Source: Acaryochloris marina S15 | Lineage (GTDB): Bacteria > Cyanobacteriota > Cyanobacteriia > Thermosynechococcales > Thermosynechococcaceae | Length of the DNA stretch: 24,000 bases | Direction: 5' to 3' | NCBI RefSeq assembly: GCF_018336915.1 | Contig: NZ_CP064923.1 | Coordinates: forward strand, 2,380,701 to 2,404,700 | Shown: positions 1 through 16,266 of the stretch, piece after piece | Position numbering within the stretch: position 1 is the first letter of the stretch | How the letters are laid out: every line of letters begins with the position of its first letter | Notes under the pieces: generated by a model | Told to the model about the DNA's origin: nothing | Databases searched by the model: none | What the model saw: only the letters and a program-made list of their open reading frames with translations | Position numbers and translations under genes: made by a program

Positions 1-362
1 TAAGTAATCTGGATAATACCGCCCCAGGTACAAAAGCATTTAGACGTGCTATTCAACGCTGGAAAATTATTGATCAATACGGTTGGTGAACCTGGTGCCC
101 AAGGGGCAGGAATAACTGGAATACAGGGCATGGGGGTAAGGACTCCCAACGCTGCAGCCGTTGCCGAGGCTACGGTGGGATTCGCGAGAGAAGAACAAAC
201 GCCAAAGGGTGGAATATTGGCGATGGGAGCATAGTCCATGATGGTGGCAGCTGCGGGACCTCCCGTCAGATCGGGGGGACCTTTAGGAATCACGATCAAG
301 GAACTCGGTGCTGCACCAAATGAACATTGTAATGAAGCTCCCATGACGACCTGTTGAGCCAT
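1..362 (-). CDS. DUF4280-type PAAR-like spike-tip protein (3' end cut by window edge)
   Basis: It is absent from the ORF track because it runs off the edge. My reverse-strand translation from the ATG at 362-360 gives MAQQVVMGASLQCSFGAAPSSLIVIPKGPPDLTGGPAAATIMDYAPIANIPPFGVCSSLANPTVASATAAALGVLTPMPCIPVIPAPWAPGSPTVLINNFPALNSTSKCFCTWGGIIQIT, followed by a split codon TA?. The Cys spacing and the PFGxC..NP and CxCxWGGxI segments match my memory of DUF4280. A GGAGGAG Shine-Dalgarno lies at 369-375 (minus strand), and the gene starts 22 nt after the VgrG stop. Confidence 0.8.
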   Translation of the reverse strand, partial: MAQQVVMGASLQCSFGAAPSSLIVIPKGPPDLTGGPAAATIMDYAPIANIPPFGVCSSLANPTVASATAAALGVLTPMPCIPVIPAPWAPGSPTVLINNFPALNSTSKCFCTWGGIIQIT

Positions 363-384
363 TGCCTACTCCTCCTTGTCACTA

Positions 385-2343
385 TCAATTGATCTTTACG
401 ATTGAGCCTTTAATGCTATTTACCCCAGAGGCCTGAACAGTCACTAAGGCACCATCAATTTTAGTTTGGGCTGTCCCTTTCATAGCGGCCTGAACCCCTT
501 GAATCGTGACGCCAGAATTGCTCAATTCAATGGATGAGCTACCCACCTTTAGCGTAATCTTGGTCGTTGCTGTTAGGGTAATTTCGCCAGCGTTCAGGCT
601 AATTTTACGAGAACTACCGCTGGTTCCAGATTTAACATTGATATCTCCTGTCGAAATCATATCGATCTTGGCGGAGCCATTATCGTCTAGTAAGACTTTA
701 TGTCCTCCCTTGGATTTTATTTCTAACTTTTTACCTTGATCATCCAACCGGGCATAATGTCCTTCTTTTGTTTTTAATTCGGTGAACTTTTCACTGTCAT
801 TGAGATACAGATGGTGGCCATACACCGTATCTAAGTAAACTCCTTTTTTATTCGCATCTTTATCCTCTTCGACAAATTGGAGGGTATGGCCGGTGCGAGT
901 TTTCACGGTTCGTAGATTGACCTTGCCGTCAACAATGGAACTATCCACCTTCTCTGGGGGACTATCTTTGCCATTCCACACCCCACCCATAATGTAGGGA
1001 CGGTGAATATCACCATGTTCAAACCCCACCAGCACCTCATCATCCACTTCGGGTAAACAGTCAAAACCGCGATTCTTGCCTGCGCCGCTGGCAACCATTC
1101 TGGCCCAGTTACTTTCATGTTCCTCTGTCAGGGTGGGAAATTTCACTCGGACTCGCCCCCACCCTTTAGGGTCTTTGTTATTGGTGACTTTACCGACCAA
1201 TAGGGTTTGCCCTGCCTGCAGCCGTTGAGCAGGGGCCAGCGTTGATAATAAATCTCCTCCCCGCAATCCCCGCACACTGAACTCAGTGGAATAAACCCGA
1301 TCTTGGAATAAATGGCGCGTTTCCGTGATGTAGTATTTACCGCTGTATTTCCCCATATCTTTGAGTTGGACGACTTGCCCCGTTCTCAAGTCGGGATTGC
1401 CTTCAGCCCTGGCATCCGCCACTACAAATTCACCTCCCAACTCATCAATTAAAGCCTGGGCAATGGTATCGGCTTCTTTGGCACTAAAGACTGGTTGATC
1501 CACCACAATCATTTTGGGAGTCGTGGGTTTGCCATTAAAGACGGTGCTTTGCTTCTGGCCGGAGCCATGATCTGTTGAGGTTAGCAATTTCTCGACATTT
1601 TTAGTGGAAACGATGGCTTCCTTCCGTTCATAATCCCAACCCCGCACTTCAACACTTTTCACTTGCTCTGCACTGGTCACCCGCACCCGAAAGCTATGTA
1701 GATCTTTGAGCCAGGTGAGGGAAATATTGGAGTTGGCCTTGGGCTTCCGAAAATTCATCTTGCCGTCTTGAACATAGAGTTCAAACCCATTTCGAGCCGC
1801 TCTCTCCCGCAAAAATTCCATATTGGTTTGGTTCTCTTGAAAAATATAGTCATGGGGAGAACCGCTGTTATCAATGCTGCCAACGGGAATTCCGACTTCT
1901 CCAATCACTTTTTTGACAACATCGGTGTCGGTCATATTTTGGAAGGAGCGATTGTAGCGACCTCGATGGAGTCGATGGGAGATATCGTAACCGCGAATCA
2001 CAATGGGGGCTTGGGAACTGGAGGTGAAATTCGTCTCCATGCCCGTGATTTCTCCATCCAGCACATAGCCTTGATTCTGATCATCAAAGTCCTGAGCTGC
2101 GGTGGTACTGCCGCTAAAGCCAATTTTGATGGTTTTACCGATCTGCAAGAGATCGTCATATTGCCAAGGGGCATCAACGGAGCGTCCAGAAAAGTAGTCA
2201 TTCTTGATTACCAGGACAAACATCCCAGGTAAGTGCAAGCTTTCTTCCACAGAAATCTGGAGGATATCTTCCATCAGCTCATTGGATGCTGTTTTACCAT
2301 CAATCTCTAGAAGTGGCTCGGCAATATAGGTGGTTGCAGGCAT
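385..2343 (-). CDS. vgrG: VgrG / Afp8-like spike protein (gpD-like N-domain, gp5 OB-fold, C-terminal beta-helix)
   Basis: 652-aa ORF. It carries the OB-fold signature GKVTNNKDPKGWGRVRVKFPTL...NWARMVASGAGKNRGFDCLPEVDDEVLVGFEHGDIHRPYIMGGVWNG. The C-terminus has repetitive beta-helix-like sequence (KVLLDDNGSAKIDMISTGDINVKSG...ITLTATTKITLKVGSSSIELSNSGVTIQG). It sits between a tube-initiator gene and a PAAR-like gene. Confidence 0.9.
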   Translation of the reverse strand: MPATTYIAEPLLEIDGKTASNELMEDILQISVEESLHLPGMFVLVIKNDYFSGRSVDAPWQYDDLLQIGKTIKIGFSGSTTAAQDFDDQNQGYVLDGEITGMETNFTSSSQAPIVIRGYDISHRLHRGRYNRSFQNMTDTDVVKKVIGEVGIPVGSIDNSGSPHDYIFQENQTNMEFLRERAARNGFELYVQDGKMNFRKPKANSNISLTWLKDLHSFRVRVTSAEQVKSVEVRGWDYERKEAIVSTKNVEKLLTSTDHGSGQKQSTVFNGKPTTPKMIVVDQPVFSAKEADTIAQALIDELGGEFVVADARAEGNPDLRTGQVVQLKDMGKYSGKYYITETRHLFQDRVYSTEFSVRGLRGGDLLSTLAPAQRLQAGQTLLVGKVTNNKDPKGWGRVRVKFPTLTEEHESNWARMVASGAGKNRGFDCLPEVDDEVLVGFEHGDIHRPYIMGGVWNGKDSPPEKVDSSIVDGKVNLRTVKTRTGHTLQFVEEDKDANKKGVYLDTVYGHHLYLNDSEKFTELKTKEGHYARLDDQGKKLEIKSKGGHKVLLDDNGSAKIDMISTGDINVKSGTSGSSRKISLNAGEITLTATTKITLKVGSSSIELSNSGVTIQGVQAAMKGTAQTKIDGALVTVQASGVNSIKGSIVKIN

Positions 2344-2378
2344 AGGTGTAAACAGTTGGAGAATTGAATTTCAGTACT

Positions 2379-2957
2379 TTAGCGACCAAAGGTTGTCCGG
2401 TTGGAGCGACTATCCTGGGAGCGATTGGGGGAGGCAGACTGACTCCCTCCTGCACCTAGGCTGGACTCATCTATTTCCTTCAAGGACATATCGACCCGGG
2501 CTTGGACCGGTGTTCCATCAGGCAAGAATAAGGTGAGTTTGTAAGTAATTTGTTCGACAAAACACCGCAGATATTGCTGGTCTCCCCAAGTGAAGATATA
2601 GATAGGCGGTCGTTTGTTGGCAGCGTCACCACTGTCATCAAAATCCAAGGCTTTAATCAGTTTGCTGACATAGGCATCGATCACGCTTGTACCTTGTTCG
2701 TAGGTATCAAACAATATATTGCTTAAGGACAAAGAGCAGGCTTCCGGGTAGGCAAAGGTGACTTTGGGTAATCCCTTAGCGGTTCGTGCCCCTTGGCTTT
2801 CATTCAGGCGCATTGACTGCTGAAAGACCAATTCAGTGGGGTTGAACATAAATTCAATATCTTTACTCTTGTCCGTGGGTTGGTGGACTAAGGTTGCCTT
2901 GGCTAACTTGCCAGAGGCAACGGCACTGTTATTGCTGCGAGAGCCACTATAGGTCAT
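2379..2957 (-). CDS. CIS tube-initiator protein (Afp7/Pvc7-like N-terminal tube domain), no LysM domain
   Basis: 192-aa ORF. The segments FMFNPTELVFQQS..., LFDTYEQGTSV..., PPIYIFTWGDQQYLRCFVEQITYKLTLFLPDGTPVQARVDMSLKEI match the conserved pattern I recall for proteins usually annotated as 'LysM peptidoglycan-binding / CIS tube protein' upstream of eCIS VgrG genes. The C-terminus here is low complexity (SSLGAGGSQSASPNRSQDSRSNR) rather than a LysM domain. Confidence 0.8.
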   Translation of the reverse strand: MTYSGSRSNNSAVASGKLAKATLVHQPTDKSKDIEFMFNPTELVFQQSMRLNESQGARTAKGLPKVTFAYPEACSLSLSNILFDTYEQGTSVIDAYVSKLIKALDFDDSGDAANKRPPIYIFTWGDQQYLRCFVEQITYKLTLFLPDGTPVQARVDMSLKEIDESSLGAGGSQSASPNRSQDSRSNRTTFGR

Positions 2958-2986
2958 GGGTATGGTTCAACCTCTTCATTTAATGT

Positions 2987-5900
2987 TCACCAAGGTAAGC
3001 GACCAGAATGATACCCTCCATGTCTCTCTCGCTCCACTTCCAGCCGCTGTCGGAGGATATGATAGATCTCCCTGGCTAAGATCTCGAAGCTTTGCTCATC
3101 TACTTTGGATGCGGTTGAAGTGTCGGTGTGGGATTGACGCATCACCACTTCTGTCGTTTGTAGAGGGGATGAGACTGGAGGAGGGGCAGCTAGAGCCTTT
3201 TGCAAGGTTTGAGCAGTCCGCCGGACAGATGCTGTTTTTCTTTGGACTCGCTTTTCTGGGTGAATTCCAGTGGGAGTGAGAACTAAATCTGAAGTGTCTT
3301 CAGGTACTGGGGTTTGTGGCTCTGCTTGGCGTTGGATGGCTGATGGCGATTGGACTGTGAATAGGTCTTCGATACTAGACCAGTTTGAGGGTAGTGCTGA
3401 GGGTTGGATTGTGGGTGCGATCGCATTCTCCGTATTCGCCTCAAAATCCTCCTCAGATAGCGCCGTGTCACCAGGGCTTAGATCTAATGGAATATTCGGG
3501 CGTTGCAAATGGCTGAGTTTTTGAGCACGATGCTGACGATTCGACTGGCTGGCAGGCCATAGGCTACTGATTAATTTCGGAGCAACAAAATTGTCGGCAA
3601 TGCTGGAAAGGGGAGAAGGCGCTTGGCCAGTCGCCAATAACTGGGCAACGGTTAGGTCTGGAGAATTCTCCTGTGGTAGTTCTAATTCAGGTGGTTGTGC
3701 TGCTATCTCAATGACTCGGCGTTGGCGCAAATCTGTAGAGTCAGGCTGAGCATTTATCTGATCTATCTTCAGCGCATCGAGAGTACCGCCTGATGGGTCT
3801 TGGTGCTGAATCGTAGGCTTAATGGGGGGCGATGATAATGGCTGGGTTGAAGCAAGTGAAGAGTCCGAACGATCTGCATCCGAAATCTGAATCTTTGAAT
3901 CAGGTGTTACTTGAGGCGGTTCTGCAACTTCAGATTTTTGTACAATGTTGGAGGAGATTTCTGTATGAGCAGGGTCAAACTCTGTTTCTACCTGAGAAGA
4001 GTGGCTCTCTGAATTCTTTTGAAGGATCTGATTCTCGTTGAGATCAGAGGATGGACTTGACGATATATCTTGACTGGGTAAATTAGCATTTTCGATGCTT
4101 CCATCAGGACGTTGAGCTGTAATTTCAATAACCCGACGGTGAAGAGACTCTACCTTGTCCGGTTGAGACTGGATGCTTTCTACTTTTTGAGGTGACGAAT
4201 CAGCAATATTTTCAGTTGGAAGTTGTTGTAAGTCTGGAGTTTTGGTGTCAGAAATACTCGGTTTGGCTAAGGGGGCCGGAGTAGCCTGATCCGAACGGGT
4301 TGTTGGGGTGGGTAGATCTGAACCTATCTTTGTCTTTGAAATTGTACTGGGCTGATGTGCAGACTGGATAATTTCTGATGCGTCTGAAATGTCAGTAAGA
4401 GCTGTATTAGAATCGTGAGACTGCTCAATGCTGGATGCTTGGATGGCAGGCTCTATAGTTGCTTCAGGCAAGTTATTGGGAGGTGATGTATCAACAGTTG
4501 GAGAGATGTGGCTATTTGGTGTAGCTTGCTGTTGTTCGGGCTGGTCTATTGACTGGGAAGGTTGGCTGTCTGGGGTTGGCTGGATTGAAAGAATATCTCT
4601 AGTATCTGGAGGTGATTCTTGGATGCGATCGCAATTATCATACGATTGCCCATTGCTTCCTTTCTGTAGCTGTGCTTCAACCGCGGGTTGGACAACAGAA
4701 ATCTCCACAGCCTGAATCGGAACGGTAGATGTTTGCTTTGATAACAACTTCGATATTTCTGTATTGGGTTCTGTTTGAGCAGAAGTCTTGTCTAGGACAG
4801 GAGTTTCCGGGGCTTTAGCCTGAGCATGTAACGGTTTGCTGGCATCACTGACATCCTTTCTTCGAGCAACTAATGGCTGATCACTATTTGATTGAGTCTC
4901 AATCTTTCGCTGAACGATGTTGCCCGTCTCAGCGATGCTAGCAGTATCACTGGTATTGCTTGGAGCTTGTGGCACATTATTTTCTTGAGATTCAAGAATC
5001 TTGGCATTCTGAGTGGCAGCAATAGCCGTATGGTCGGGCGCGTTTACCTTGAGGTCTGATTCAGATAAGCTTTGGTCTGATACTGTCTCTTTCGGTGGAT
5101 TTACGTTGGCTTGAATCGTTGGGGAAGCACTATTCGATACGTTGTCGTCTTGTTTCGGACTTTGAGATGTGTTGATATTAGTGCTATCCAGATTTTGACT
5201 AGTAGCTTCTGAGAGGTTAACTTCTATAACTACCTTTGGACTCTCTCTGTCGTCACTTTGCTTACTCTTCTTGGAAAGCTGAACCTGTTCTTCACTGAAT
5301 TCCTGGATAGATAAATCTGAGCCAGCGGGAAGCTGTTGTTGAGTTTGGCTAGTGATCGATGGCTGTTCAACCTTAGTTTGAACGGAGACTTCACTAATGG
5401 GAGGACGTTCTGGAGGATGCGATTCTGTTTCTAGAACATGTTGATCCAGAAAGTTTGGGGTTGGAGCGTTAGGTATATCGGGTTGAGATTGCTCCTGTAT
5501 AGTTTGTCGCTGGAGTAGGTTGTCTGGATCGCTGGTATTTGATACTTCTGAGTTTTCATCAGAGTCTGTGGACTCCTGTAACGATAGTTCAGCTTGAGAA
5601 AGTGAATGTGAACTTGGGGGGATAGCAGCTTTGGATTGTTTTATTCGATCATCAGCATTGTCGAGTTGTGATGATTGCTGATGAGTGACGTCCTGACGTT
5701 GAATAGAGTTATTAGTACTTGGAATTGAGGTCGCTTGATTGATCGCCTCACTTTGAGTAATGGAATTCTTCTGAGGGGAAAGTTGAATGGAATCTGAGGT
5801 GGGCAGAGAAGACAGCTCTGTTCGGTGCTGAAGGTTCGGTTCGCTAAAGGAGCTAGAACTTTCAGAATCCAAGGGCTTAGAGTTTATTTCCTCAGCTGGG

Positions 5901-8900
5901 ATAGGCTGCTTTTGAATAATTTCTGCTGTGGATGAGTGTCGTTTAATTGAGCTATCAGCTAAGGGAGAAGGAACCTCAGAGGGCTGTATGGAAGAGTGGG
6001 GTGTGTTTCTTGAAGGCTGGTCAGAGACTATTGGAGCGCGGGTCGAAGCTGCCTCGCTCCCATCGCCCGTGTCATGCTGCCTTTGGACCACTGCTGTATG
6101 TCCAGTGGTCGGTGATGATTGTGTGGGTACGTTTGGTCGTTCTAAAGGGTTGGACTGATGTGTCGATGGCGATGTTTCCTCTTGTTCAGTCAGTAAAGTT
6201 GGTCTGAGAGTTGTATCAGCTCCTGTATTCTCACTAGAAATTTTTGCGGGAGACGACGCTAGGTTCTGCTTGTTTGTCTGGCGTTTTGACTTTGTCTTTT
6301 TAGGCCTTAAGTTTGCCAACTGCTGGACAATGGTTGTACCTATTTTTGAGATATGGGAATTGAGGGAGAGATTGCGACTTTGAGATGATTTTGGTGTTGA
6401 GCCACGGTTTTCTGAACCTCGACTCGATACATCGGTTATTGGCTGTTCTGAGCTTGTTGAGGTTATCTCAGAGCTATCTGGAGTCCTTTGTATAGAGTCC
6501 TCATTGCCTGATGGCAAAGCTGGCTCATTTTGTCCTGAATCTTTTGGTGGCTGAGGAGTCTTTGCTTTATCAACAGAGCTAGCTTGAATAATTGGCTCAG
6601 TTGTGGATTCTGGTGGATTATTAGTGTCTTTTGCTGGGGAAGGAGGGATGGCGGGATTTACATCCGTTTGAACAAGACTTTCTGTTGCCGGGTTAGATGT
6701 AGAGGTTAGCTGTACCGAATCAGTCAATAATGGTTGTTCATTGCCATACACTTTGTCTGAACTAGGCTCAGCAGAGGCCTGAATATTATCTCTATTAAGC
6801 TCAGGAACATCTGCAGATTGTAGGGAGATGTTTTTCTGTGCAACTTCGGATGAGGTCGCTGGTTCAACTGAGCCAGCTTCCTGACATTGTATGGATTGAG
6901 GTAATTGCCTCCTCGAACTTTGTTTTCGGATCGACCGATCAACCCTCTCTTTAATTTCTGAACCTAGATTTGTGATTCTATCTGCGAATTGATTTTGAGT
7001 GGTTTGCCATCCAGGCTGGGCAGCATTGGGTTGTGCTTCTCCTTGGGCAACAAGTGCTGGGTTATGCCCTTCCCGTGGGGAAGATTCCTCAATACTATTT
7101 GGGGTAGGGAAGTCTACTTGCTCAGAAGGAAGAGGGGTCGGTATTGAGGATTGTGATGCTTCAGCTTTTTGTACCGTTGGTAATTCTTGGGTTTGGAGAT
7201 TTTCATCAGCAGTGACATCGGTGAGTCGACCTGACTGATTCTTGGGATGCTCTTGTTCGTTTGAACTAAGTTTAGATTTTGAATGAATAGCTGTATCTGG
7301 AACTGTATTGGGTGAAAATGGCTTAGCCTGAATGTCTGATTGAATAGATGTTACAGCGTTTTTATCTACAGCTTTACCACCACTACCTTGCGATGGCGAT
7401 GTATCTTCACCTACCGATTTTTGAGGCGAGACAGGGTTGATGGTCTGGTCTTTACGATTCTGCTCTGAGTTTTTGGATAAAAACTGCTGCTGTCTTTGGA
7501 GCGGATTGGACTCTTCATTTGGCTGAGGTTCAAGTTGGCGACTAACCGTATCCATGACCTGTTGACTGAAACGCGTCAGTCGTTGCAGGGGTTGAACTGG
7601 GAAGGGTCCCCGCGTCTTTGCTTTTGACCGAGACGAACTAGACTCAGCATTAGAAGTAACATCTGATGATGAGGTAGGTTTTTGCTGATCGGCACTCCCC
7701 TCGGGTGTGGATGATTCAGATTTAATTTGATCCGGTCTAGATGCCTTGGAGTCTGAGGTGGACTCAGTCCCCTCATTAGGACCAGCGATTGAATTAGGAT
7801 GTTTGTCTTGATGAATCGTTGGCTCAGACATTCCAAGAGACTTCGTTTGTAGTGGAGTGGAAGGCGAATGTTCTTGGGGTAAGTCTATAGACTCAGGAAT
7901 TGCTTGAACAGTTGGAGAATTCTCTTCATAGTCAGCATTCTCAGTGTTCACTGACAGCAGTTTTTCTTGGGACAGTTCTTGAGAAGGAGCTTTCTCTACA
8001 GCCTTTGTTCCTGTTTGGACTAGAGATACTTCAGAGGATGATTGTTTTGAGTCAGGGGACGATTTGGCTTGAAGCAATGGAGCGTTTGACAGTGGAGGTG
8101 AATCATTCGTGGATTTCTGTACCTCATTGGCCTTAGCTCTAGATTTACCAACAGGGAGTGATTGAGATGCCTGCTTAAGCTGAATACCAACTTTATTAAT
8201 ATCCTGTTGGGCTCGTTTCCCCATTCGCGAGAGCTGAGCTTGTAAGGGAAGCTTTTTCTGTTTGCTTTTTTTACTTTGTTTCGTTTGTTTTTTTTCAGGT
8301 GCTTTAGTAGATGCCTGAGGAGTTAAATCGTCTGCTCGTTGAATAGCTGTTGACTGTACCGCTTCCCCATCAATTTTTTCTGAAGTGCTGGGTATAGAAG
8401 GACTCTCAACGGATGGGAGGTTGTTACTAGGATTAATGCGGTTAGTCTCTACCTTTGGTATCTGTGGGTGATCCGTAGAAGACTGCTGAACAGCCGAACT
8501 TTCTGAGTTTTGAATAGTTGTTGTCTCTGTGGAGCTATCAGAAGTCTTGGCCGTTGAACTGGGTGGCTCGGAATTCTTAAGCAGTAAAGACTCATCATCT
8601 GGAGATTGTTGAGGAGATGCTGGGGTGACTGTTTGAACAATTGTTGTCTTGATGGGGGTTTCGTTAGTCTTGGGCTTAGGGCTAGGTGTTACAGGAGTTT
8701 CAATTGATGAACCACGATCAATTGAGTGACTTGGGTTAGCTTCTACTTTTGAGTTAGCGAGGGAAGCCTGTGAACGGCTAGTTTGCAGTTCATTTGGAGA
8801 AATAGGAGATGACTGTATAGTCCGCTTAGCAGGTAGATCTGTGGTGATGTCAGTCGCTTGTTCAGTGGGTGGAGTGGTTAGCTCGATGTCTTGAGCAGTC

Positions 8901-10252
8901 GCCTCAAGTGAAGTTTGGATTGGAACGGGTTGGGACTCGGGAGGTTGAACGTTAGATACTGGTTTTTCCTGAACAGGTTTAGAAGAAATAACTGGTTTTT
9001 GACTAGACAGTGGAGATGCTTTTGGGGCAGCTTCTTCTTTACTTTGGACAACCTGGGTGTTTTGAGTAGATAGAGCTAATGAATGGTCAGGGGCAGAAGA
9101 GACTTTTGGGAGGTTTGGTTGAATGGGGGTAGAGACTTCTGATGCTTCAGTTGGAGATGAATCAGAATTTGTAGAATTGGCAAGAGGTGAAGGGTCTAGG
9201 CTAGAAGATGTTACGTCTGAGTCTAGAGGAGTGGCCTGTTCTTGAGACTTAGGGAGACTCTCTTGGATTGCGGAGGGCTCGGAATTTGCCTTGATTTCTG
9301 GTAAATCCTGGCGTTTAGTCTGAAGGGGCGGCACATCTGTTGGGTGGGAAGAAGCACTCACCTCAGGAGATATCGCTTTGGATGAGGGATGTGCGATTGG
9401 TTTCTGGGGCGTTTGTTCAGGCTGGGGGTTGAACTCAGTACTGGGTTTGCCGGCAACCCCCTCTGATGATGTCTGAAGTCCCGGTGTGTTGTCTATTGGG
9501 GAGGAAGCAGGGGAATGTGCTGACTCTTGAGCATGGGATTCATGGGATGGCGGGCTAAGTTTAGAAGTCCTGACCAGCTTAGGTTGAAGTATTGTGTCAG
9601 GACTGCTTTGATCTTGAGCAATCTGTTTTTCTGATTCAACCTGCTCAGAATGAGGGACTAAAGACTGGGTAGAGATCTGATACTGCACAGGCTGAATAGA
9701 AGGGGCTGCAGCTTGGGTCGGGGCAGCATTAAGGACTGCATTAGTCTCACTGGATGACGATGGTTCTACTTCTGGTGCATTGCGATGGATCTTGTTAGCA
9801 TTGCTGGGTGCTGTTGGCGGCTCCTGATGGGTTGATAATTGCTCTAATTTAGGTTGCAGATTCTCGGCAGGTGCTTTCGGAGCAAGAGTGCTAGGTTGCG
9901 CTCCAGGAAACTGGGTTACGACGGATTGAGAGATGTTGGAAGCCATTGACGACAGCTCGTCAATGGCTTCCGTTGGCACCTGGGCAGCAAAATGGGTATT
10001 TAGAAGATTTGTCCGAGCTGTTTCGGTAGGCAGGGTGGCATCCAAGCTTATTAGGGATACAGTGCCCAAGGGAGATAGGGTATGGGGTTGGAGAAAGGAT
10101 TGTCCTAGAACAGGAGGAGGTAGCAGTGGATGTTGCAGGCCGAGCGAGTCTGAGGAAGGAATCTCTTCCGGCTGGGATTGATGACCTTGACCTGAATTGA
10201 CATCCATAAACAAACGTTTTGGGTTAGTTACTGGGGTAGAATCCTCCGGCAT
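2987..10252 (-). CDS. Giant 2421-aa low-complexity (Ser/Pro/Gln/Thr/Glu-rich) protein in the tape-measure (Afp14-like) position
   Basis: The 7.26-kb frame is uninterrupted, which cannot arise by chance at this GC content. It lies between the tube and tube-initiator genes and overlaps the tube stop by 29 nt (an alternative ATG at 10207 would leave a 16-nt gap). The C-terminus FEILAREIYHILRQRLEVERERHGGYHSGRLPW (2990-3088) is the only clearly helical, conserved-looking segment. Duplicated peptide blocks differ mainly at synonymous positions, which supports real translation. The functional call rests on position and motif only. Confidence 0.8.
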   Translation of the reverse strand: MPEDSTPVTNPKRLFMDVNSGQGHQSQPEEIPSSDSLGLQHPLLPPPVLGQSFLQPHTLSPLGTVSLISLDATLPTETARTNLLNTHFAAQVPTEAIDELSSMASNISQSVVTQFPGAQPSTLAPKAPAENLQPKLEQLSTHQEPPTAPSNANKIHRNAPEVEPSSSSETNAVLNAAPTQAAAPSIQPVQYQISTQSLVPHSEQVESEKQIAQDQSSPDTILQPKLVRTSKLSPPSHESHAQESAHSPASSPIDNTPGLQTSSEGVAGKPSTEFNPQPEQTPQKPIAHPSSKAISPEVSASSHPTDVPPLQTKRQDLPEIKANSEPSAIQESLPKSQEQATPLDSDVTSSSLDPSPLANSTNSDSSPTEASEVSTPIQPNLPKVSSAPDHSLALSTQNTQVVQSKEEAAPKASPLSSQKPVISSKPVQEKPVSNVQPPESQPVPIQTSLEATAQDIELTTPPTEQATDITTDLPAKRTIQSSPISPNELQTSRSQASLANSKVEANPSHSIDRGSSIETPVTPSPKPKTNETPIKTTIVQTVTPASPQQSPDDESLLLKNSEPPSSTAKTSDSSTETTTIQNSESSAVQQSSTDHPQIPKVETNRINPSNNLPSVESPSIPSTSEKIDGEAVQSTAIQRADDLTPQASTKAPEKKQTKQSKKSKQKKLPLQAQLSRMGKRAQQDINKVGIQLKQASQSLPVGKSRAKANEVQKSTNDSPPLSNAPLLQAKSSPDSKQSSSEVSLVQTGTKAVEKAPSQELSQEKLLSVNTENADYEENSPTVQAIPESIDLPQEHSPSTPLQTKSLGMSEPTIHQDKHPNSIAGPNEGTESTSDSKASRPDQIKSESSTPEGSADQQKPTSSSDVTSNAESSSSRSKAKTRGPFPVQPLQRLTRFSQQVMDTVSRQLEPQPNEESNPLQRQQQFLSKNSEQNRKDQTINPVSPQKSVGEDTSPSQGSGGKAVDKNAVTSIQSDIQAKPFSPNTVPDTAIHSKSKLSSNEQEHPKNQSGRLTDVTADENLQTQELPTVQKAEASQSSIPTPLPSEQVDFPTPNSIEESSPREGHNPALVAQGEAQPNAAQPGWQTTQNQFADRITNLGSEIKERVDRSIRKQSSRRQLPQSIQCQEAGSVEPATSSEVAQKNISLQSADVPELNRDNIQASAEPSSDKVYGNEQPLLTDSVQLTSTSNPATESLVQTDVNPAIPPSPAKDTNNPPESTTEPIIQASSVDKAKTPQPPKDSGQNEPALPSGNEDSIQRTPDSSEITSTSSEQPITDVSSRGSENRGSTPKSSQSRNLSLNSHISKIGTTIVQQLANLRPKKTKSKRQTNKQNLASSPAKISSENTGADTTLRPTLLTEQEETSPSTHQSNPLERPNVPTQSSPTTGHTAVVQRQHDTGDGSEAASTRAPIVSDQPSRNTPHSSIQPSEVPSPLADSSIKRHSSTAEIIQKQPIPAEEINSKPLDSESSSSFSEPNLQHRTELSSLPTSDSIQLSPQKNSITQSEAINQATSIPSTNNSIQRQDVTHQQSSQLDNADDRIKQSKAAIPPSSHSLSQAELSLQESTDSDENSEVSNTSDPDNLLQRQTIQEQSQPDIPNAPTPNFLDQHVLETESHPPERPPISEVSVQTKVEQPSITSQTQQQLPAGSDLSIQEFSEEQVQLSKKSKQSDDRESPKVVIEVNLSEATSQNLDSTNINTSQSPKQDDNVSNSASPTIQANVNPPKETVSDQSLSESDLKVNAPDHTAIAATQNAKILESQENNVPQAPSNTSDTASIAETGNIVQRKIETQSNSDQPLVARRKDVSDASKPLHAQAKAPETPVLDKTSAQTEPNTEISKLLSKQTSTVPIQAVEISVVQPAVEAQLQKGSNGQSYDNCDRIQESPPDTRDILSIQPTPDSQPSQSIDQPEQQQATPNSHISPTVDTSPPNNLPEATIEPAIQASSIEQSHDSNTALTDISDASEIIQSAHQPSTISKTKIGSDLPTPTTRSDQATPAPLAKPSISDTKTPDLQQLPTENIADSSPQKVESIQSQPDKVESLHRRVIEITAQRPDGSIENANLPSQDISSSPSSDLNENQILQKNSESHSSQVETEFDPAHTEISSNIVQKSEVAEPPQVTPDSKIQISDADRSDSSLASTQPLSSPPIKPTIQHQDPSGGTLDALKIDQINAQPDSTDLRQRRVIEIAAQPPELELPQENSPDLTVAQLLATGQAPSPLSSIADNFVAPKLISSLWPASQSNRQHRAQKLSHLQRPNIPLDLSPGDTALSEEDFEANTENAIAPTIQPSALPSNWSSIEDLFTVQSPSAIQRQAEPQTPVPEDTSDLVLTPTGIHPEKRVQRKTASVRRTAQTLQKALAAPPPVSSPLQTTEVVMRQSHTDTSTASKVDEQSFEILAREIYHILRQRLEVERERHGGYHSGRLPW
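3417..3424. repeat. HIP1 octamer GCGATCGC
   Basis: Perfect palindromic octamer read directly from the sequence, inside the giant ORF. Confidence 0.95.
4625..4632. repeat. HIP1 octamer GCGATCGC
   Basis: Perfect octamer read directly from the sequence, inside the giant ORF. Confidence 0.95.
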
Positions 10253-10796
10253 CTCTACCTTTCAAGAAGGTAGCCCCACCGCCTGCGTTACTGCTGGGCT
10301 GCAGGTTGGCAACGACCTTTAGACCTTCGTATGCCAAGGTGAGTTCTTCAATGGCAACGGTAGATGTATCCGCTTGGAGAGCTGGAGCTTGCCAAGCCAC
10401 GGGGACGGCACCAATTAAGGTCCAGGTTTGAATGGTTTCTCCTGCTTGATTGAACAAGAGGATATTGATGTTGCGACGCTGGGGATTCACATTACGATCG
10501 GTCGGTTCTAACTGGGTGAGCATACGACTGGCCCAGCCCCAAAACACTAGATCATTCGTAATCCCTCGCTTGAGGGTGACATCAGAGAATTCAGTTTGAC
10601 CGAGTATGATTCGCTGCTGGTTGTTGACGCCGCCTTCAAAGTAGGTGTCATGCTTGATTTTGGCGCTTAACCCTGAACATTCGCTAAAGCAAGCACTGAT
10701 ATAGCTCTTTTCTTGGATTTCGACATAGAAGCGATTGGCAGTGACGTAGTTAAGGTTATGGGTTTCGCTGTTGCTAGCCACTAGTGCCGCCCCCAT
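10224..10796 (-). CDS. Contractile-tail inner tube protein (T4 gp19 / Afp1-Afp5 family)
   Basis: 190-aa ORF. NRFYVEI...FSECSGLSAKIKHDTYFEGGVNN...FSDVTLKRGITNDLVFWGWA is the classic gp19-like 'phage tail protein' pattern (F-x-V-E-I, SGL, EGG-N, TLKRG). It has an extra Gly-rich tail of about 30 aa. Confidence 0.9.
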   Translation of the reverse strand: MGAALVASNSETHNLNYVTANRFYVEIQEKSYISACFSECSGLSAKIKHDTYFEGGVNNQQRIILGQTEFSDVTLKRGITNDLVFWGWASRMLTQLEPTDRNVNPQRRNINILLFNQAGETIQTWTLIGAVPVAWQAPALQADTSTVAIEELTLAYEGLKVVANLQPSSNAGGGATFLKGRDAGGFYPSN

Positions 10797-11007
10797 AGTT
10801 CCGCTCGCGCTGATTTTGCAGGTCGTTTTGCATCAGTTCATAGATGCGATCGCATAATCGAGATTGCGCCAGTGGATCTTGCAAAATCTGGGCTGCTAAT
10901 CTGAAAACCCTGTCTCGATCAGATAGATCAGACAGTCCAGGCGAGCACCCCGCTGAAGCTGAATGGATTCTCTGGTTTTCTCCTAGAGACTGATCCCCTT
11001 GGCTCAT
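10774..11007 (-). CDS. Small CIS-associated protein (77 aa from ATG 11007; 102 aa if the 11082 start is used) carrying the same C-terminal motif as the giant ORF
   Basis: It is the first ORF of the minus-strand operon and overlaps the tube start by 23 nt. Its C-terminus RLCDRIYELMQNDLQNQRERNYGGGTSG aligns without gaps to REIYHILRQRLEVERERHGGY of the giant ORF. That match argues it is genuinely coding. Confidence 0.6.
   Translation of the reverse strand: MSQGDQSLGENQRIHSASAGCSPGLSDLSDRDRVFRLAAQILQDPLAQSRLCDRIYELMQNDLQNQRERNYGGGTSG
10846..10853. repeat. HIP1 octamer GCGATCGC
   Basis: Perfect octamer inside the small CIS ORF, covering codons C-D-R of CDRIY. Confidence 0.95.
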
Positions 11008-11783
11008 ATGGCAAGTACCTAGTAACAACTCTCCCCGCCTGCCCCACCCCGCTTCAGATAAGGGATGAGGGACCAGCCTCACTCTATGGGCCAGAAAGAG
11101 CGACCGATAGTAGCCAAAGGTCTAACTGCACCAAGCATATGGTTCTACATAGGCGCAAGCCTTCCATGAACAAAAGCTGTGATGGGTAAAAAGGTCTATT
11201 AGAGAATGGTCCTCTTCTCCACTTTGAGTAGAGGCTAAATGAAGCCGTGAACTTTTCTAAGATTTTCCATCAGTTTTATCTTGCTTCATCATTTGATTAA
11301 CAAAAGCGAAGATTTTAGTAAATATACTCAGGAATCCATAGGGTATGAAGAAACTAAATCTCAGATGAAGCTTTACCTATCGCACCTAAATGGATAGGCA
11401 AAAGTAGAAAAATTTGCTGACTGCATTCACTTTTTTTCAACCGTAAGGAGGGTCTGATATCAGCTGAGACCTCTAAAAGTGGCTTAACTTAATAATTTTT
11501 TACAGGATTAAATTTCTTCTGACAAATAAAACTTACTGGGCATCAATAATCGAGAATCGTTTTCATGTTGATGTCTTAAAAGTATGCCCAGAAAGCTTTT
11601 TGAGCTATTTGACTGTCCGTAACTTTTGCCGAAATACTCCAAACTTTTCTATCCATAAACTCGTAATTACCAAAAAAAACCTGAAATCCAGAGATTATCA
11701 AGGTTCTGACGATCTATATTTAGCGAATAGCATTTAGAATAATCCATTAAATCGACGTGGTTGCGACATTTCAGCCAGTTAGA

Positions 11784-11853
11784 CTGTAGTTACACTCCAG
11801 ATAGAACATCAGATTTATCTGTATTTTTCTGGAACTACAGACTCGATTTTTTT
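11784..11853 (+). terminator. Nested hairpin plus T7 run in the hup leader (candidate intrinsic terminator/attenuator)
   Basis: CTGTAGTT (11784-11791) pairs perfectly with AACTACAG (11833-11840). An inner stem pairs CAGATA (11798-11803) with TATCTG (11816-11821). A run of seven T follows at 11847-11853, 35 nt before the hup ATG. The stems are AT-rich, so stability is uncertain. Confidence 0.3.
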
Positions 11854-11887
11854 GCTCACGCTTAACTGAACAAATAGGAGTCAATCA

Positions 11888-12169
11888 ATGAATAAAGGAG
11901 AACTCGTCGACGCCGTTGCTGATAAGGCAAGTGTCACGAAAAAGCAGGCAGATGCAGTTCTGACTGCCGCCCTAGAGGCCATTGTTGAATCTGTCTCGTC
12001 AGGAGAAAAAGTCACATTGGTGGGATTTGGCTCATTTGAACCTCGCGAACGCAAGGCCCGGGAAGGACGTAACCCCAAAACCGGTGCGAAAATGAAGATT
12101 CCCGCAACTAAAGTTCCAGCTTTCTCTGCAGGTAAGCTGTTTAAGGAAAAAGTTGCTCCTAAAAAGTAA
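11888..12169 (+). CDS. hup: HU-type DNA-binding protein
   Basis: The 93-aa sequence MNKGELVDAVADKASVTKKQADAVLTAALEAIVESVSSGEKVTLVGFGSFEPRERKAREGRNPKTGAKMKIPATKVPAFSAGKLFKEKV is near-identical in pattern to cyanobacterial HU. A TAGGAG Shine-Dalgarno lies just upstream. Confidence 0.95.
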   Translation: MNKGELVDAVADKASVTKKQADAVLTAALEAIVESVSSGEKVTLVGFGSFEPRERKAREGRNPKTGAKMKIPATKVPAFSAGKLFKEKVAPKK

Positions 12170-15906: not shown

Positions 15907-16266
15907 ATGCGTGGACTTCTGTTAACTATTCTAGCTACCGCCCTCAGTTTACTGGTGGTCGATTACGTCTTTGCAGGGATTGATTTAGACAGTATCTCCA
16001 CTGCGATCGCAGCTGCAGTTGCCATTGGCTTGGTGAATGCCATTGTTAAACCCGTGCTGAAAATTGTGTCTTTCCCATTGACCTTACTGTCCCTGGGTGG
16101 GTTTTTGCTCGTGCTGAATGGGTTATGTTTCTCCCTAGCTGCCGCGTTCGTGCCAGGCTTTCAGGTAGACGGCTTGTTGGCGTTTTTTCTGGGGCCGATT
16201 GCCCTGTCGGTGGTGAATGCGTTCTTAAATCGGTACTTACCGGAAGAAGCACCCTCAGCGAGCTAG
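15907..16266 (+). CDS. DUF360 / phage holin family IV-like small membrane protein
   Basis: 119 aa with about four hydrophobic helices. The segment LVNAIVKPVLKIVSFPLTLLSLGGFLLVLNGL is typical of this family. A GAGGAG Shine-Dalgarno lies upstream. Confidence 0.7.
   Translation: MRGLLLTILATALSLLVVDYVFAGIDLDSISTAIAAAVAIGLVNAIVKPVLKIVSFPLTLLSLGGFLLVLNGLCFSLAAAFVPGFQVDGLLAFFLGPIALSVVNAFLNRYLPEEAPSAS
16003..16010. repeat. HIP1 octamer GCGATCGC
   Basis: Perfect octamer read directly from the sequence. Confidence 0.95.

Follow-up and report, generated by a model that had tools for sequence, protein, structure and literature searches.

Where is the remainder of a contractile injection system (CIS) whose spike genes stand alone in an operon, and what is the giant protein encoded in the middle of that operon? 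Both questions are raised by the first 11,082 nucleotides of the window studied here, i.e., a stretch of 24,000 nucleotides from the genome of the cyanobacterium Acaryochloris marina S15 (contig NZ_CP064923.1). Six co-directional open reading frames (ORFs) on the minus strand encode, in the order of transcription, a small protein, a gp19-type tube protein, a product of 2,421 amino acids (aa) referred to below as the giant ORF, a tube initiator of the CIS_tube family, a VgrG-type spike protein, and a DUF4280 protein (Table 1). We lean towards regarding this region as the spike and tube-initiator operon of a lineage II CIS, closest to the Streptomyces system CIS-Sc, that is distributed over at least two chromosomal loci, with the giant ORF encoding a divergent tape-measure-type protein of the tube lumen.

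The spike operon and the separate sheath locus

The preliminary description of this DNA, made from the sequence alone, had named the tube, Afp7-like, VgrG, and DUF4280 genes, and all four assignments are upheld by profile searches against Pfam and the PDB. The top PDB match of the tube protein is Afp5 (2.8e-11), compared to 3.5e-5 for Afp1. The Cis7-type protein matches the "tube initiator" chain 8kea_P (1.2e-9) as well as Alg7, Afp7, and Cis7 of the Streptomyces coelicolor system CIS-Sc, in each case over the barrel region only; Pfam revealed no LysM domain in its 192 aa at E ≤ 0.01, and its cyanobacterial homologues have lengths of 148 to 192 aa. The best solved relative of VgrG is Cis8 of CIS-Sc (9gtr_q, 1.5e-48), followed by All3320 of Anabaena (1.2e-30). 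VgrG is identical to entry QUY44649.1 of A. marina, and the tube and Cis7-type proteins, as well as several proteins encoded in the flanks, are likewise identical to QUY-series entries of strain S15. The DUF4280 gene runs off the left edge of the window and encodes 130 aa on the longer contig L001; we take DUF4280 to be a PAAR-like family.

The tight packing of six co-directional minus-strand genes agrees with the ORF coordinates, and recomputation for the longest-ORF boundaries returned gaps of 22, 35, and 29 nt and overlaps of 29 and 23 nt, as described before. The 29-nt overlap between the giant ORF and the tube gene is probably an artefact of choosing the longest ORF, because the deposited S15 annotation and the other strains start the giant ORF at Met16 (10207), which results in a hypothetical protein of 2,406 aa (QUY44651.1) and leaves a 16-nt gap to the tube gene. 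The small ORF is annotated from the ATG at 11007 as a protein of 77 aa (QUY44653.1).

The gene order had been considered non-canonical. It matches the afp5-6-7-8-10 block of the antifeeding prophage (AFP) and the order All3323 (Cis5), Cis6, Cis7, All3320 (Cis8) of Anabaena; judged from the gene assignments, it is the standard block and at the same time the P2 order of tube, tape measure, and hub. The tail genes of phage P2 and the R-type pyocins run from the sheath and the tube via the chaperones (gpE/E+E') to the tape measure gpT, gpU, and gpD. The giant ORF, which lies between the tube/chaperone genes and the tube initiator, occupies the tape-measure position of these systems.

Among three Acaryochloris strains, VgrG, the Cis7-type protein, and the tube protein are 94 to 99% identical, with omega values of 0.01 to 0.04 (VgrG, 0.03; Cis7-type, about 0.01), and all six operon genes are intact in each Acaryochloris strain seen. 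Neither the window nor the 10 kb beyond it contains capsid, portal, terminase, integrase, or lysis genes, in agreement with the earlier view that this is a CIS module and not a prophage. A long residence in the genome had also been proposed, and the operon does look like a long-resident chromosomal locus: six HIP1 sites are present in the window versus 0.28 expected from base composition, three of them within CIS genes (at 3417, 4625, and 10846), and the hup flank is the same in three Acaryochloris strains (L007, L008, and L011).

The missing sheath, cap, and ATPase genes had been predicted either to the left of position 1 or in a separate locus. Only the second expectation was borne out. On a longer contig and in a second strain, the 10 kb left of the DUF4280 gene contain no CIS gene; the operon is followed by a convergent Band_7 gene and then by genes for QueG, PNPase, and an SNF2 helicase. 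A sheath search revealed 566-aa proteins of A. marina; one of these, QUY40554.1 (Phage_sheath_1 and 1C), shares its 5.88-Mb contig with VgrG. One strand of the sheath locus carries the genes for a DUF4157 protein, an AAA+ ATPase (664 aa; WHD+AAA), two small ORFs, a Pvc16_N cap protein, a GerE-type response regulator, and a histidine kinase, while on the other strand there are genes for another Pvc16_N protein, the sheath, three paralogous tube proteins, two small proteins, and a PBP_like_2 protein; the lengths of the two Pvc16_N proteins are 436 aa and 186 aa. Both small proteins of this second strand match the tail assembly chaperone family PHROG 508 (5.4e-6 and 1.4e-3). The second chaperone gene shares its end with an uncalled DUF6760-like frame (…GYPLDKLYEEVAYIAYHFHWSRNDILQMEHGERLQWIREIERLVG; L012:14040-14290) in a different reading frame; this DUF6760-like frame lacks a start codon and is a candidate for a programmed frameshift comparable to that of the phage gpG/gpGT pair. 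Pseudanabaena has a corresponding pair of Phage_TAC_7 and DUF6760 genes.

The distance between the two modules differs among strains. Both are located 48 kb apart on a single 74.7-kb contig of a divergent Acaryochloris strain. In S15, the protein accession numbers of the sheath locus and the spike operon are about 4,100 apart, and in strain MBIC11017, the DUF1643 gene of the sheath locus is AM1_0280 and the tube gene is AM1_5908. These accession and locus numbers, which are not base distances, suggest that the modules are far apart in both genomes.

Further observations concern the sheath locus itself. The genes for the histidine kinase and the GerE-type response regulator (L012:6771-8641) lie between those for the cap and the sheath. 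Pseudanabaena has a response regulator gene in this place as well, Streptomyces clavuligerus has one close to its cap and ATPase genes, and the kinase and regulator are likely dedicated to the control of the system. The DUF4157 (eCIS_core) protein (L012:509-2134), which is encoded one small gene away from the ATPase, has between 413 and 541 aa depending on the A. marina strain (comparison with L010 and L097), and the strain of SRR12447975 does not have it at this position. The set of payloads seems to be strain specific. Finally, a PBP_like_2 protein of 729 to 834 aa and an adjacent gene for a Nif11-type leader peptide accompany the CIS modules of Acaryochloris, Pseudanabaena, and Ancylothrix.

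The separation of sheath and spike genes is not restricted to A. marina. A Leptolyngbyaceae genome (L006) harbors a contiguous run of three tube genes, a tail assembly chaperone gene, the small ORF, a further tube gene, a giant ORF of 2313 aa, and the genes for Cis7, VgrG, and DUF4280, and in a related locus (L005) the sheath gene directly precedes these same tube genes. Because this operon is contiguous, the gene content indicates that A. marina carries two pieces of a single layout. In Pseudanabaena ABRG5-3, the spike operon comprises the small ORF, a tube gene, a 2531-aa ORF, and the genes for Cis7, VgrG, PAAR, gp25, Cis11, and Cis12, and it shares a plasmid with the sheath module, at a distance of 54 kb. 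Since Pseudanabaena shows the same split, the genomes compared indicate that it is usual for this cyanobacterial lineage and not peculiar to Acaryochloris. An operon that starts with the small ORF and the tube gene, with no sheath gene upstream, had been regarded as unusual; this start recurs in Pseudanabaena, and the situation in Ancylothrix is similar, with no sheath gene within 8 kb upstream of the spike-adjacent tube copy. Split loci of extracellular contractile injection systems (eCISs) have already been documented in the dbeCIS database, which lists 13 cases as exceptions, including the T6SS-iv of Amoebophilus (Chen et al. 2019). The preliminary description was accordingly right about the gene identities and about a remainder elsewhere in the genome, but wrong in treating the order and the split as exceptional.

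The genes of the baseplate wedge, i.e., gp25 (Cis9), Cis11, and Cis12, were not found within 10 kb of either A. marina module. A search for Cis11 at the protein level returned no Acaryochloris name among the best 120 matches, where only cluster representatives are named and an Acaryochloris member could be hidden within a cluster. A genome scan gave no Acaryochloris among the best 80 of 214 loci; it relied on exact 8-mers, an insensitive criterion that was not fully matched even by the Leptolyngbyaceae Cis11 fragment in L005. A. marina plasmids were considered as the home of the missing genes but gained no support: tblastn of a sheath and a Cis11 protein against the PLSDB plasmids gave no Acaryochloris record among the matches listed, and in the identity range expected for Acaryochloris (60 to 80%), the sheath matches listed were from Kovacikia, Pseudanabaena, and Brasilonema only. 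About 20 kb of the 31-kb gap between the modules on contig SRR12447975_43 was walked and contained only housekeeping and toxin-antitoxin genes. In view of their scope, these searches do not speak for an absence of the genes. In the Leptolyngbyaceae with a DUF4280-ended spike operon, the opposite strand carries an operon of its own for gp25 and Cis11, and a third locus for the wedge genes is therefore to be expected in A. marina by analogy.

The undetected wedge genes would also be compatible with an auxiliary or decaying spike island outside a working machine, resembling the orphan vgrG-PAAR islands of type VI secretion systems (T6SSs). Such islands have possible counterparts in an orphan VgrG and DUF4280 pair of Thainema and in a copy that was rearranged and truncated next to an insertion sequence element in another genome (L005). 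However, no Acaryochloris strain seen has a damaged copy of any of the six genes, omega is 0.01 to 0.04 for the structural ones, a matching intact locus with sheath, cap, ATPase, and chaperone genes is present, and the DUF4280-ended operon of the Leptolyngbyaceae is the sole spike operon of a full cluster. An isolated island is hence very improbable as an explanation of the A. marina locus.

Regarding these two copies themselves, the pair in Thainema sp. (L002:6248-8642 and L003) includes a VgrG that is 66% identical to that of the window, has no other CIS gene within 6 to 10 kb, and resembles the auxiliary vgrG islands of T6SSs. The rearranged partial spike module of the Leptolyngbyaceae assembly GCA_011009555.1 (L005:4000-13900) is located about 3 kb from a DDE transposase gene. 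It retains 1,575 aa of the giant ORF, 49 aa of DUF4280, and 445 aa of Cis11; in the sister genome L006, the layout is intact.

The giant slot protein

The giant ORF is the informative and the one unusual part of the operon. Ser, Pro, Gln, and Thr make up 45% of its residues, aromatic residues are almost absent, the net charge is -103, and hydrophobic runs do not exceed four residues. In the charge-hydropathy analysis, 79 of 93 sequence windows fall on the disordered side, and the product is, as predicted from this composition, an acidic and intrinsically disordered protein. It is not constructed from exact repeats, and it had no Pfam, PHROG, or PDB match.

Its relatives are recognized by their two ends. 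The C-terminal module of the family (…LAREIYxxLRQRLEIERERxG…GRLPW) is matched by 237 clusters at 50% identity, and in nearly all of the best 150 of them it forms the extreme C-terminus. AlphaFold2 modeling of the last 200 residues of the giant ORF produced a single confident element, i.e., the C-terminal helix, with block means of the predicted local distance difference test of 81 to 96. The N-terminal motif (…PLG.q.PLLP…LGQsfL.P…PLGa.S) aligns in most of the 17 members from the compared genomes, which range from 266 to 2531 aa. The disordered linker between these conserved ends comprises about 200 to 2,400 aa, and the complete family genes in the fetched loci fall into the ranges of about 266 to 303 aa, 1,200 to 1,370 aa, and 2,188 to 2,531 aa. 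Homologues in the same slot have 2313 aa in Leptolyngbyaceae, 2531 aa in Pseudanabaena, and 272 aa in Ancylothrix. A 53-aa "minimal member," considered as proof that the linker is dispensable, was discarded, since this ORF is the end of a longer gene that is frameshifted on a scaffold of low quality.

The small ORF at the head of the operon had no Pfam match. Its C-terminus LCDRIYELMQNDLQNQRERNYGG matches the helix profile of the family (1.2e-15). The fetched loci with complete family genes each encode such a paralogue, with 59 to 95 aa, just upstream of this tube gene, as seen in Pseudanabaena, Coleofasciculus, Nostoc, Almyronema, and Leptolyngbyaceae.

The giant ORF evolves in a very different manner from its neighbors. 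Identities among the three Acaryochloris strains are as low as 48 to 57%, compared to the 94 to 99% of the structural proteins, and omega is about 0.5 in the middle versus 0.11 to 0.26 in the last 100 residues. The strain alignments contain 320 to 380 gapped columns, and the frame is open over 7.3 kb in every strain. Selection appears to keep the openness, the approximate length, and the composition of the giant ORF rather than its sequence.

The tape-measure-type reading is based on the slot known from phages, the two phage-type chaperones, the overlapping DUF6760-like frame, and the combination of conserved ends with a free middle. Phage tail assembly chaperones serve the tape measure. In the particle that we envisage, VgrG would form the spike and the PAAR-like DUF4280 protein its tip, while the LysM-less Cis7-type protein and the Afp5-type tube copy would represent two adaptor rings that nucleate the tube. 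We infer that the C-terminal helix of the giant protein, possibly together with the N-terminal motif, docks in the cavity of the hub and spike, that the acidic disordered chain of about 2,300 residues lies in the tube lumen, and that it is attended by the two gpE/gpG-like chaperones from the sheath locus. The chain would set or track the length of the tube and be expelled on contraction. The small ORF encodes a short paralogue of this helix module, and its product probably acts in the same cavity as a plug or an assembly partner.

In the main rival reading, the rapid divergence of the giant ORF is that of an effector. The protein would then be a cargo tethered in the hub by its C-terminal helix, carried in the lumen, and delivered on firing, with the length of the particle set by other means. 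An omega of about 0.5 and numerous indels between strains are expected of proteins in conflict, eCIS cargos use disordered N-terminal sequences for loading, and a precedent exists in Tme of Streptomyces davawensis, a tape-measure-related CIS effector of 2,247 aa that is about 70% disordered. Moreover, compared to shuffled sequences, the giants contain [ILVM]Q[RK] motifs at an excess of about 5- to 40-fold, and the DUF4157 cargo-type proteins of A. marina and Pseudanabaena share these motifs in their disordered N-termini. The motif was rejected as a universal feature of the family, as some members show a strong enrichment and others do not have it at all, and its lack in many members counts against a cargo. 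The giant protein has no enzymatic, toxin, membrane-insertion, or DUF4157 domain and no hydrophobic segment. In addition, the fixed slot in a structural operon and the conservation of both termini are better suited to a structural part, and the presence of chaperone genes also speaks against a cargo. We therefore consider this function unlikely.

The position of the gene corresponds to that of cis6, between cis5 and cis7, and the giant ORF might be an enlarged plug of the Cis6/Afp6 type, whose termini would sit in the VgrG cavity and whose huge linker would be a nearly neutral loop. Alg6 has a comparable topology of a conserved N-terminal segment, a flexible loop, and a trimerizing C-terminal helix, the middle of the giant ORF evolves almost freely, and we estimate that three copies would take up no more than about 30% of the space in a 270-nm lumen. 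However, PDB searches at E ≤ 10 matched no chain apart from chance-level hits, with the Cis6 and Alg6 model chains presumed to be present in the searched library. Homology of the giant or small ORF to Cis6, Alg6, Afp14, or any solved chain was rejected as well, since phmmer and a profile of 21 sequences revealed nothing above chance. Cis6 has 50 aa versus the 2,421 aa of the giant ORF, a neutral 7-kb loop would not stay open at 2,188 to 2,531 aa across Acaryochloris, Leptolyngbyaceae, and Pseudanabaena, and the separate paralogue of 59 to 95 aa is a better candidate for the plug. An enlarged plug is thus a distinctly unlikely solution.

The tape-measure-type reading has to be weighed against several findings of its own. 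In sequence and profile searches, the giant protein showed no similarity to Afp14, to Alg14, to gp29, or to any family of tape measures, and the PDB contained no match to a profile built from the C-terminal motif. The protein is proline rich and predicted to be disordered, while the known tape measures, including Alg14, are mostly alpha-helical. Complete members of the family differ ninefold in size (about 270 to 2,500 aa), and a strict ruler would imply tails from about 60 to more than 500 nm within one sheath family. The placement of the protein in the particle is a proposal drawn from the genes, and since the wedge genes of A. marina were not seen within 10 kb of either module or among the best matches of insensitive searches, the machine may be incomplete. 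All these points count against a tape measure. According to the published slope for CIS tape measures of 0.2156 nm per residue, the 2,421 residues would correspond to a tail of about 520 nm if the protein is a strict ruler. The Lake Zurich Planktothrix data of Weiss et al. show only contracted sheaths and offer no tail lengths for comparison.

Known systems and a Streptomyces lead

The closest solved spike belongs to CIS-Sc of S. coelicolor (dbeCIS lineage II, subtype IId; PDB 9GTP/9GTR; 1.5e-48). The shared parts are two tube types, Cis7, Cis8, a DUF4255 cap, an AAA+ ATPase, and DUF4157 partners; gp25/Cis11/Cis12 belong to this set in CIS-Sc and would be expected in A. marina, and a recognized Afp14-type tape measure has not been reported for CIS-Sc either. 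The Cis7 protein of CIS-Sc has a LysM domain, whereas that of A. marina lacks it, and S. coelicolor is devoid of a PAAR protein, whereas A. marina has DUF4280. No tape measure has been recognized in the literature for CIS-Sc or for lineage II as a whole, yet CIS-Sc particles have a uniform length of 268 nm.

The Cis5-6-7-8-10 order of the window is identical to that of the thylakoid-anchored CIS (tCIS) of Anabaena and of AlgoCIS of Algoriphagus (lineage Ib). Their slot protein is a 50-aa plug, accompanied by a separate helical tape measure (Cis14/Alg14) within one contiguous cluster; in contrast, the slot protein of A. marina has 2,400 aa, and no separate tape measure was recognized in the two loci examined. 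The resemblance to P2 and the R-type pyocins comprises the tube, one or more chaperones with a frameshift-type second ORF, a long lumen protein, and hub and spike. Unlike these systems, A. marina has no head, DNA-packaging, or lysis module, contains an AAA+ ATPase and a DUF4255 cap, and has a disordered long protein.

Tme of S. davawensis (BN159_7576) is comparable to the giant ORF in its size of 2,247 aa, its mostly disordered state, its CIS association, and its proposed tape-measure ancestry, but it has a DUF4157 domain, transmembrane helices, and a C-terminal EndA-like nuclease, none of which is found in the giant ORF, and it belongs to another CIS clade. Tme and the Sle1/Sle2 proteins were rejected as homologues, being different proteins at different positions. 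With respect to the architecture, the split eCISs of dbeCIS also have the core genes of one machine spread over separate loci, but they are listed there as exceptions, whereas a spike operon apart from the sheath recurs across genera in the examined cyanobacteria.

A possible counterpart outside of the cyanobacteria is located on plasmid pF1D18A of S. clavuligerus (L016:11912-16057), where about 3.9 kb between a DUF6760-like ORF and the second tube gene are unannotated. This stretch contains a Pro/Ala-rich ORF of 1,381 aa with 20 xVQRx motifs, compared to 0.5 expected, that ends with …LLRAELRGDRERVGRLRDG; the annotation covers no more than the final 71 codons and places a hypothetical gene in antisense orientation within the ORF. 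The match to the helix-motif profile is weak (E of 1.4e-3 against a single sequence), and the coding status is uncertain, as the G+C content at third codon positions is 0.80 versus 0.91 to 0.96 in the neighboring genes. At most, these sequence features are suggestive of a related slot protein. The sheath and baseplate genes are contiguous in S. clavuligerus, in contrast to their distribution over at least two loci in A. marina, and the candidate long ORF precedes the second tube gene, whereas the giant ORF follows its tube gene.

As a tentative extension, which we regard as rather doubtful, the slot-protein family might represent the length ruler that lineage II has seemed to lack, made of an intrinsically disordered chain instead of a helical tape measure. 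Tails would then be tuned by linker indels from about 60 nm to more than 0.5 µm, A. marina would have one of the longest, with about 0.5 µm, and the 1,381-aa ORF of Streptomyces would explain the uniformity of CIS-Sc. If this ruler exists, a disordered chain can measure length, and linker length is a handle for particle size and cargo capacity; if the giant protein is instead an ejected disordered cargo, it represents a new class of payload. The value of the locus lies in the slot-protein family, a candidate family of disordered proteins with conserved ends that occupies the tape-measure slot and is associated with phage-type chaperones, and in the testable prediction of tail length. The split as such is ordinary. 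It is a warning that locus-based eCIS catalogues will miss or truncate such systems. In cyanobacteria, CISs have been reported in about 40% of the sequenced genomes.

Feature coordinates and the surroundings of the operon

Table 1. Features of the CIS operon and its right flank in the window, and loci of the accompanying PBP_like_2/Nif11 genes
Feature	Position	Strand	Evidence or remark
DUF4280 (spike-tip) gene	1..362	-	120/130 codons inside window, off left edge; PF14107 3.9e-34
VgrG-type spike, Cis8/Afp8 equivalent, 652 aa	385..2343	-	Phage_base_V 1.9e-27 and Phage_GPD 4.1e-12
Tube initiator, Cis7/Afp7-type beta-barrel without LysM, 192 aa	2379..2957	-	PF19266 CIS_tube 1.4e-18
Giant slot ORF, 2421 aa (longest ORF), in tape-measure/Afp6 slot	2987..10252	-	Composition; homologues in same slot
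Conserved C-terminal module of giant ORF, residues 2382-2421	2990..3109	-	Amphipathic helix SFEILAREIYHILRQRLEVERERHG, then GYHSGRLPW
Conserved N-terminal motif of giant ORF, residues 36-71, SLGLQHPLLPPPVLGQSFLQPHTLSPLGTVSLISLD	10040..10147	-	Family alignment
gp19-type tube protein, spike-adjacent copy (Afp5/Cis5 or Cis1b position), 190 aa	10224..10796	-	PF06841 2.4e-36
Small ORF, 102 aa maximal	10774..11082	-	Paralogue of C-terminal helix module of giant ORF
AT-rich intergenic region, operon head to divergent hup	11083..11887	.	805 bp, GC ~0.40
hup	11888-12169	+	Bac_DNA_binding 2.9e-33
PBP_like_2/Nif11 loci	L012:14311-16761; L015:2045-4903; L004:4629-7413		A. marina copy with weak kinase-like stretch

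The AT-rich gap of about 800 bp and the divergent hup gene that had been described at the head of the operon were both recovered, the former with 805 bp. The gap had no Rfam match, and consensus promoter sites occur in it at chance level. Its hup-proximal part of about 320 to 430 bp (~11460-11887) is almost identical in the three Acaryochloris strains and probably comprises promoter and leader of hup. Towards the CIS operon, the gap is variable or deleted among them.

The right half of the window contains ordinary metabolic and signaling genes. Outside of the CIS operon, the only phage-named gene of the window encodes a 119-aa Phage_holin_4_2 protein (15907-16266, plus strand; 3.8e-29). It is located amid housekeeping genes 5 kb from the CIS operon, and its product is probably an ordinary membrane protein of that family. 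Across the giant ORF (window positions 3000-10000), the plus strand shows a strong, sustained GC skew of +0.18 to +0.38 and a negative AT skew. Both are explained by the Ser, Pro, Gln, and Thr codons, which are rich in C and A, and do not represent a replication signal.

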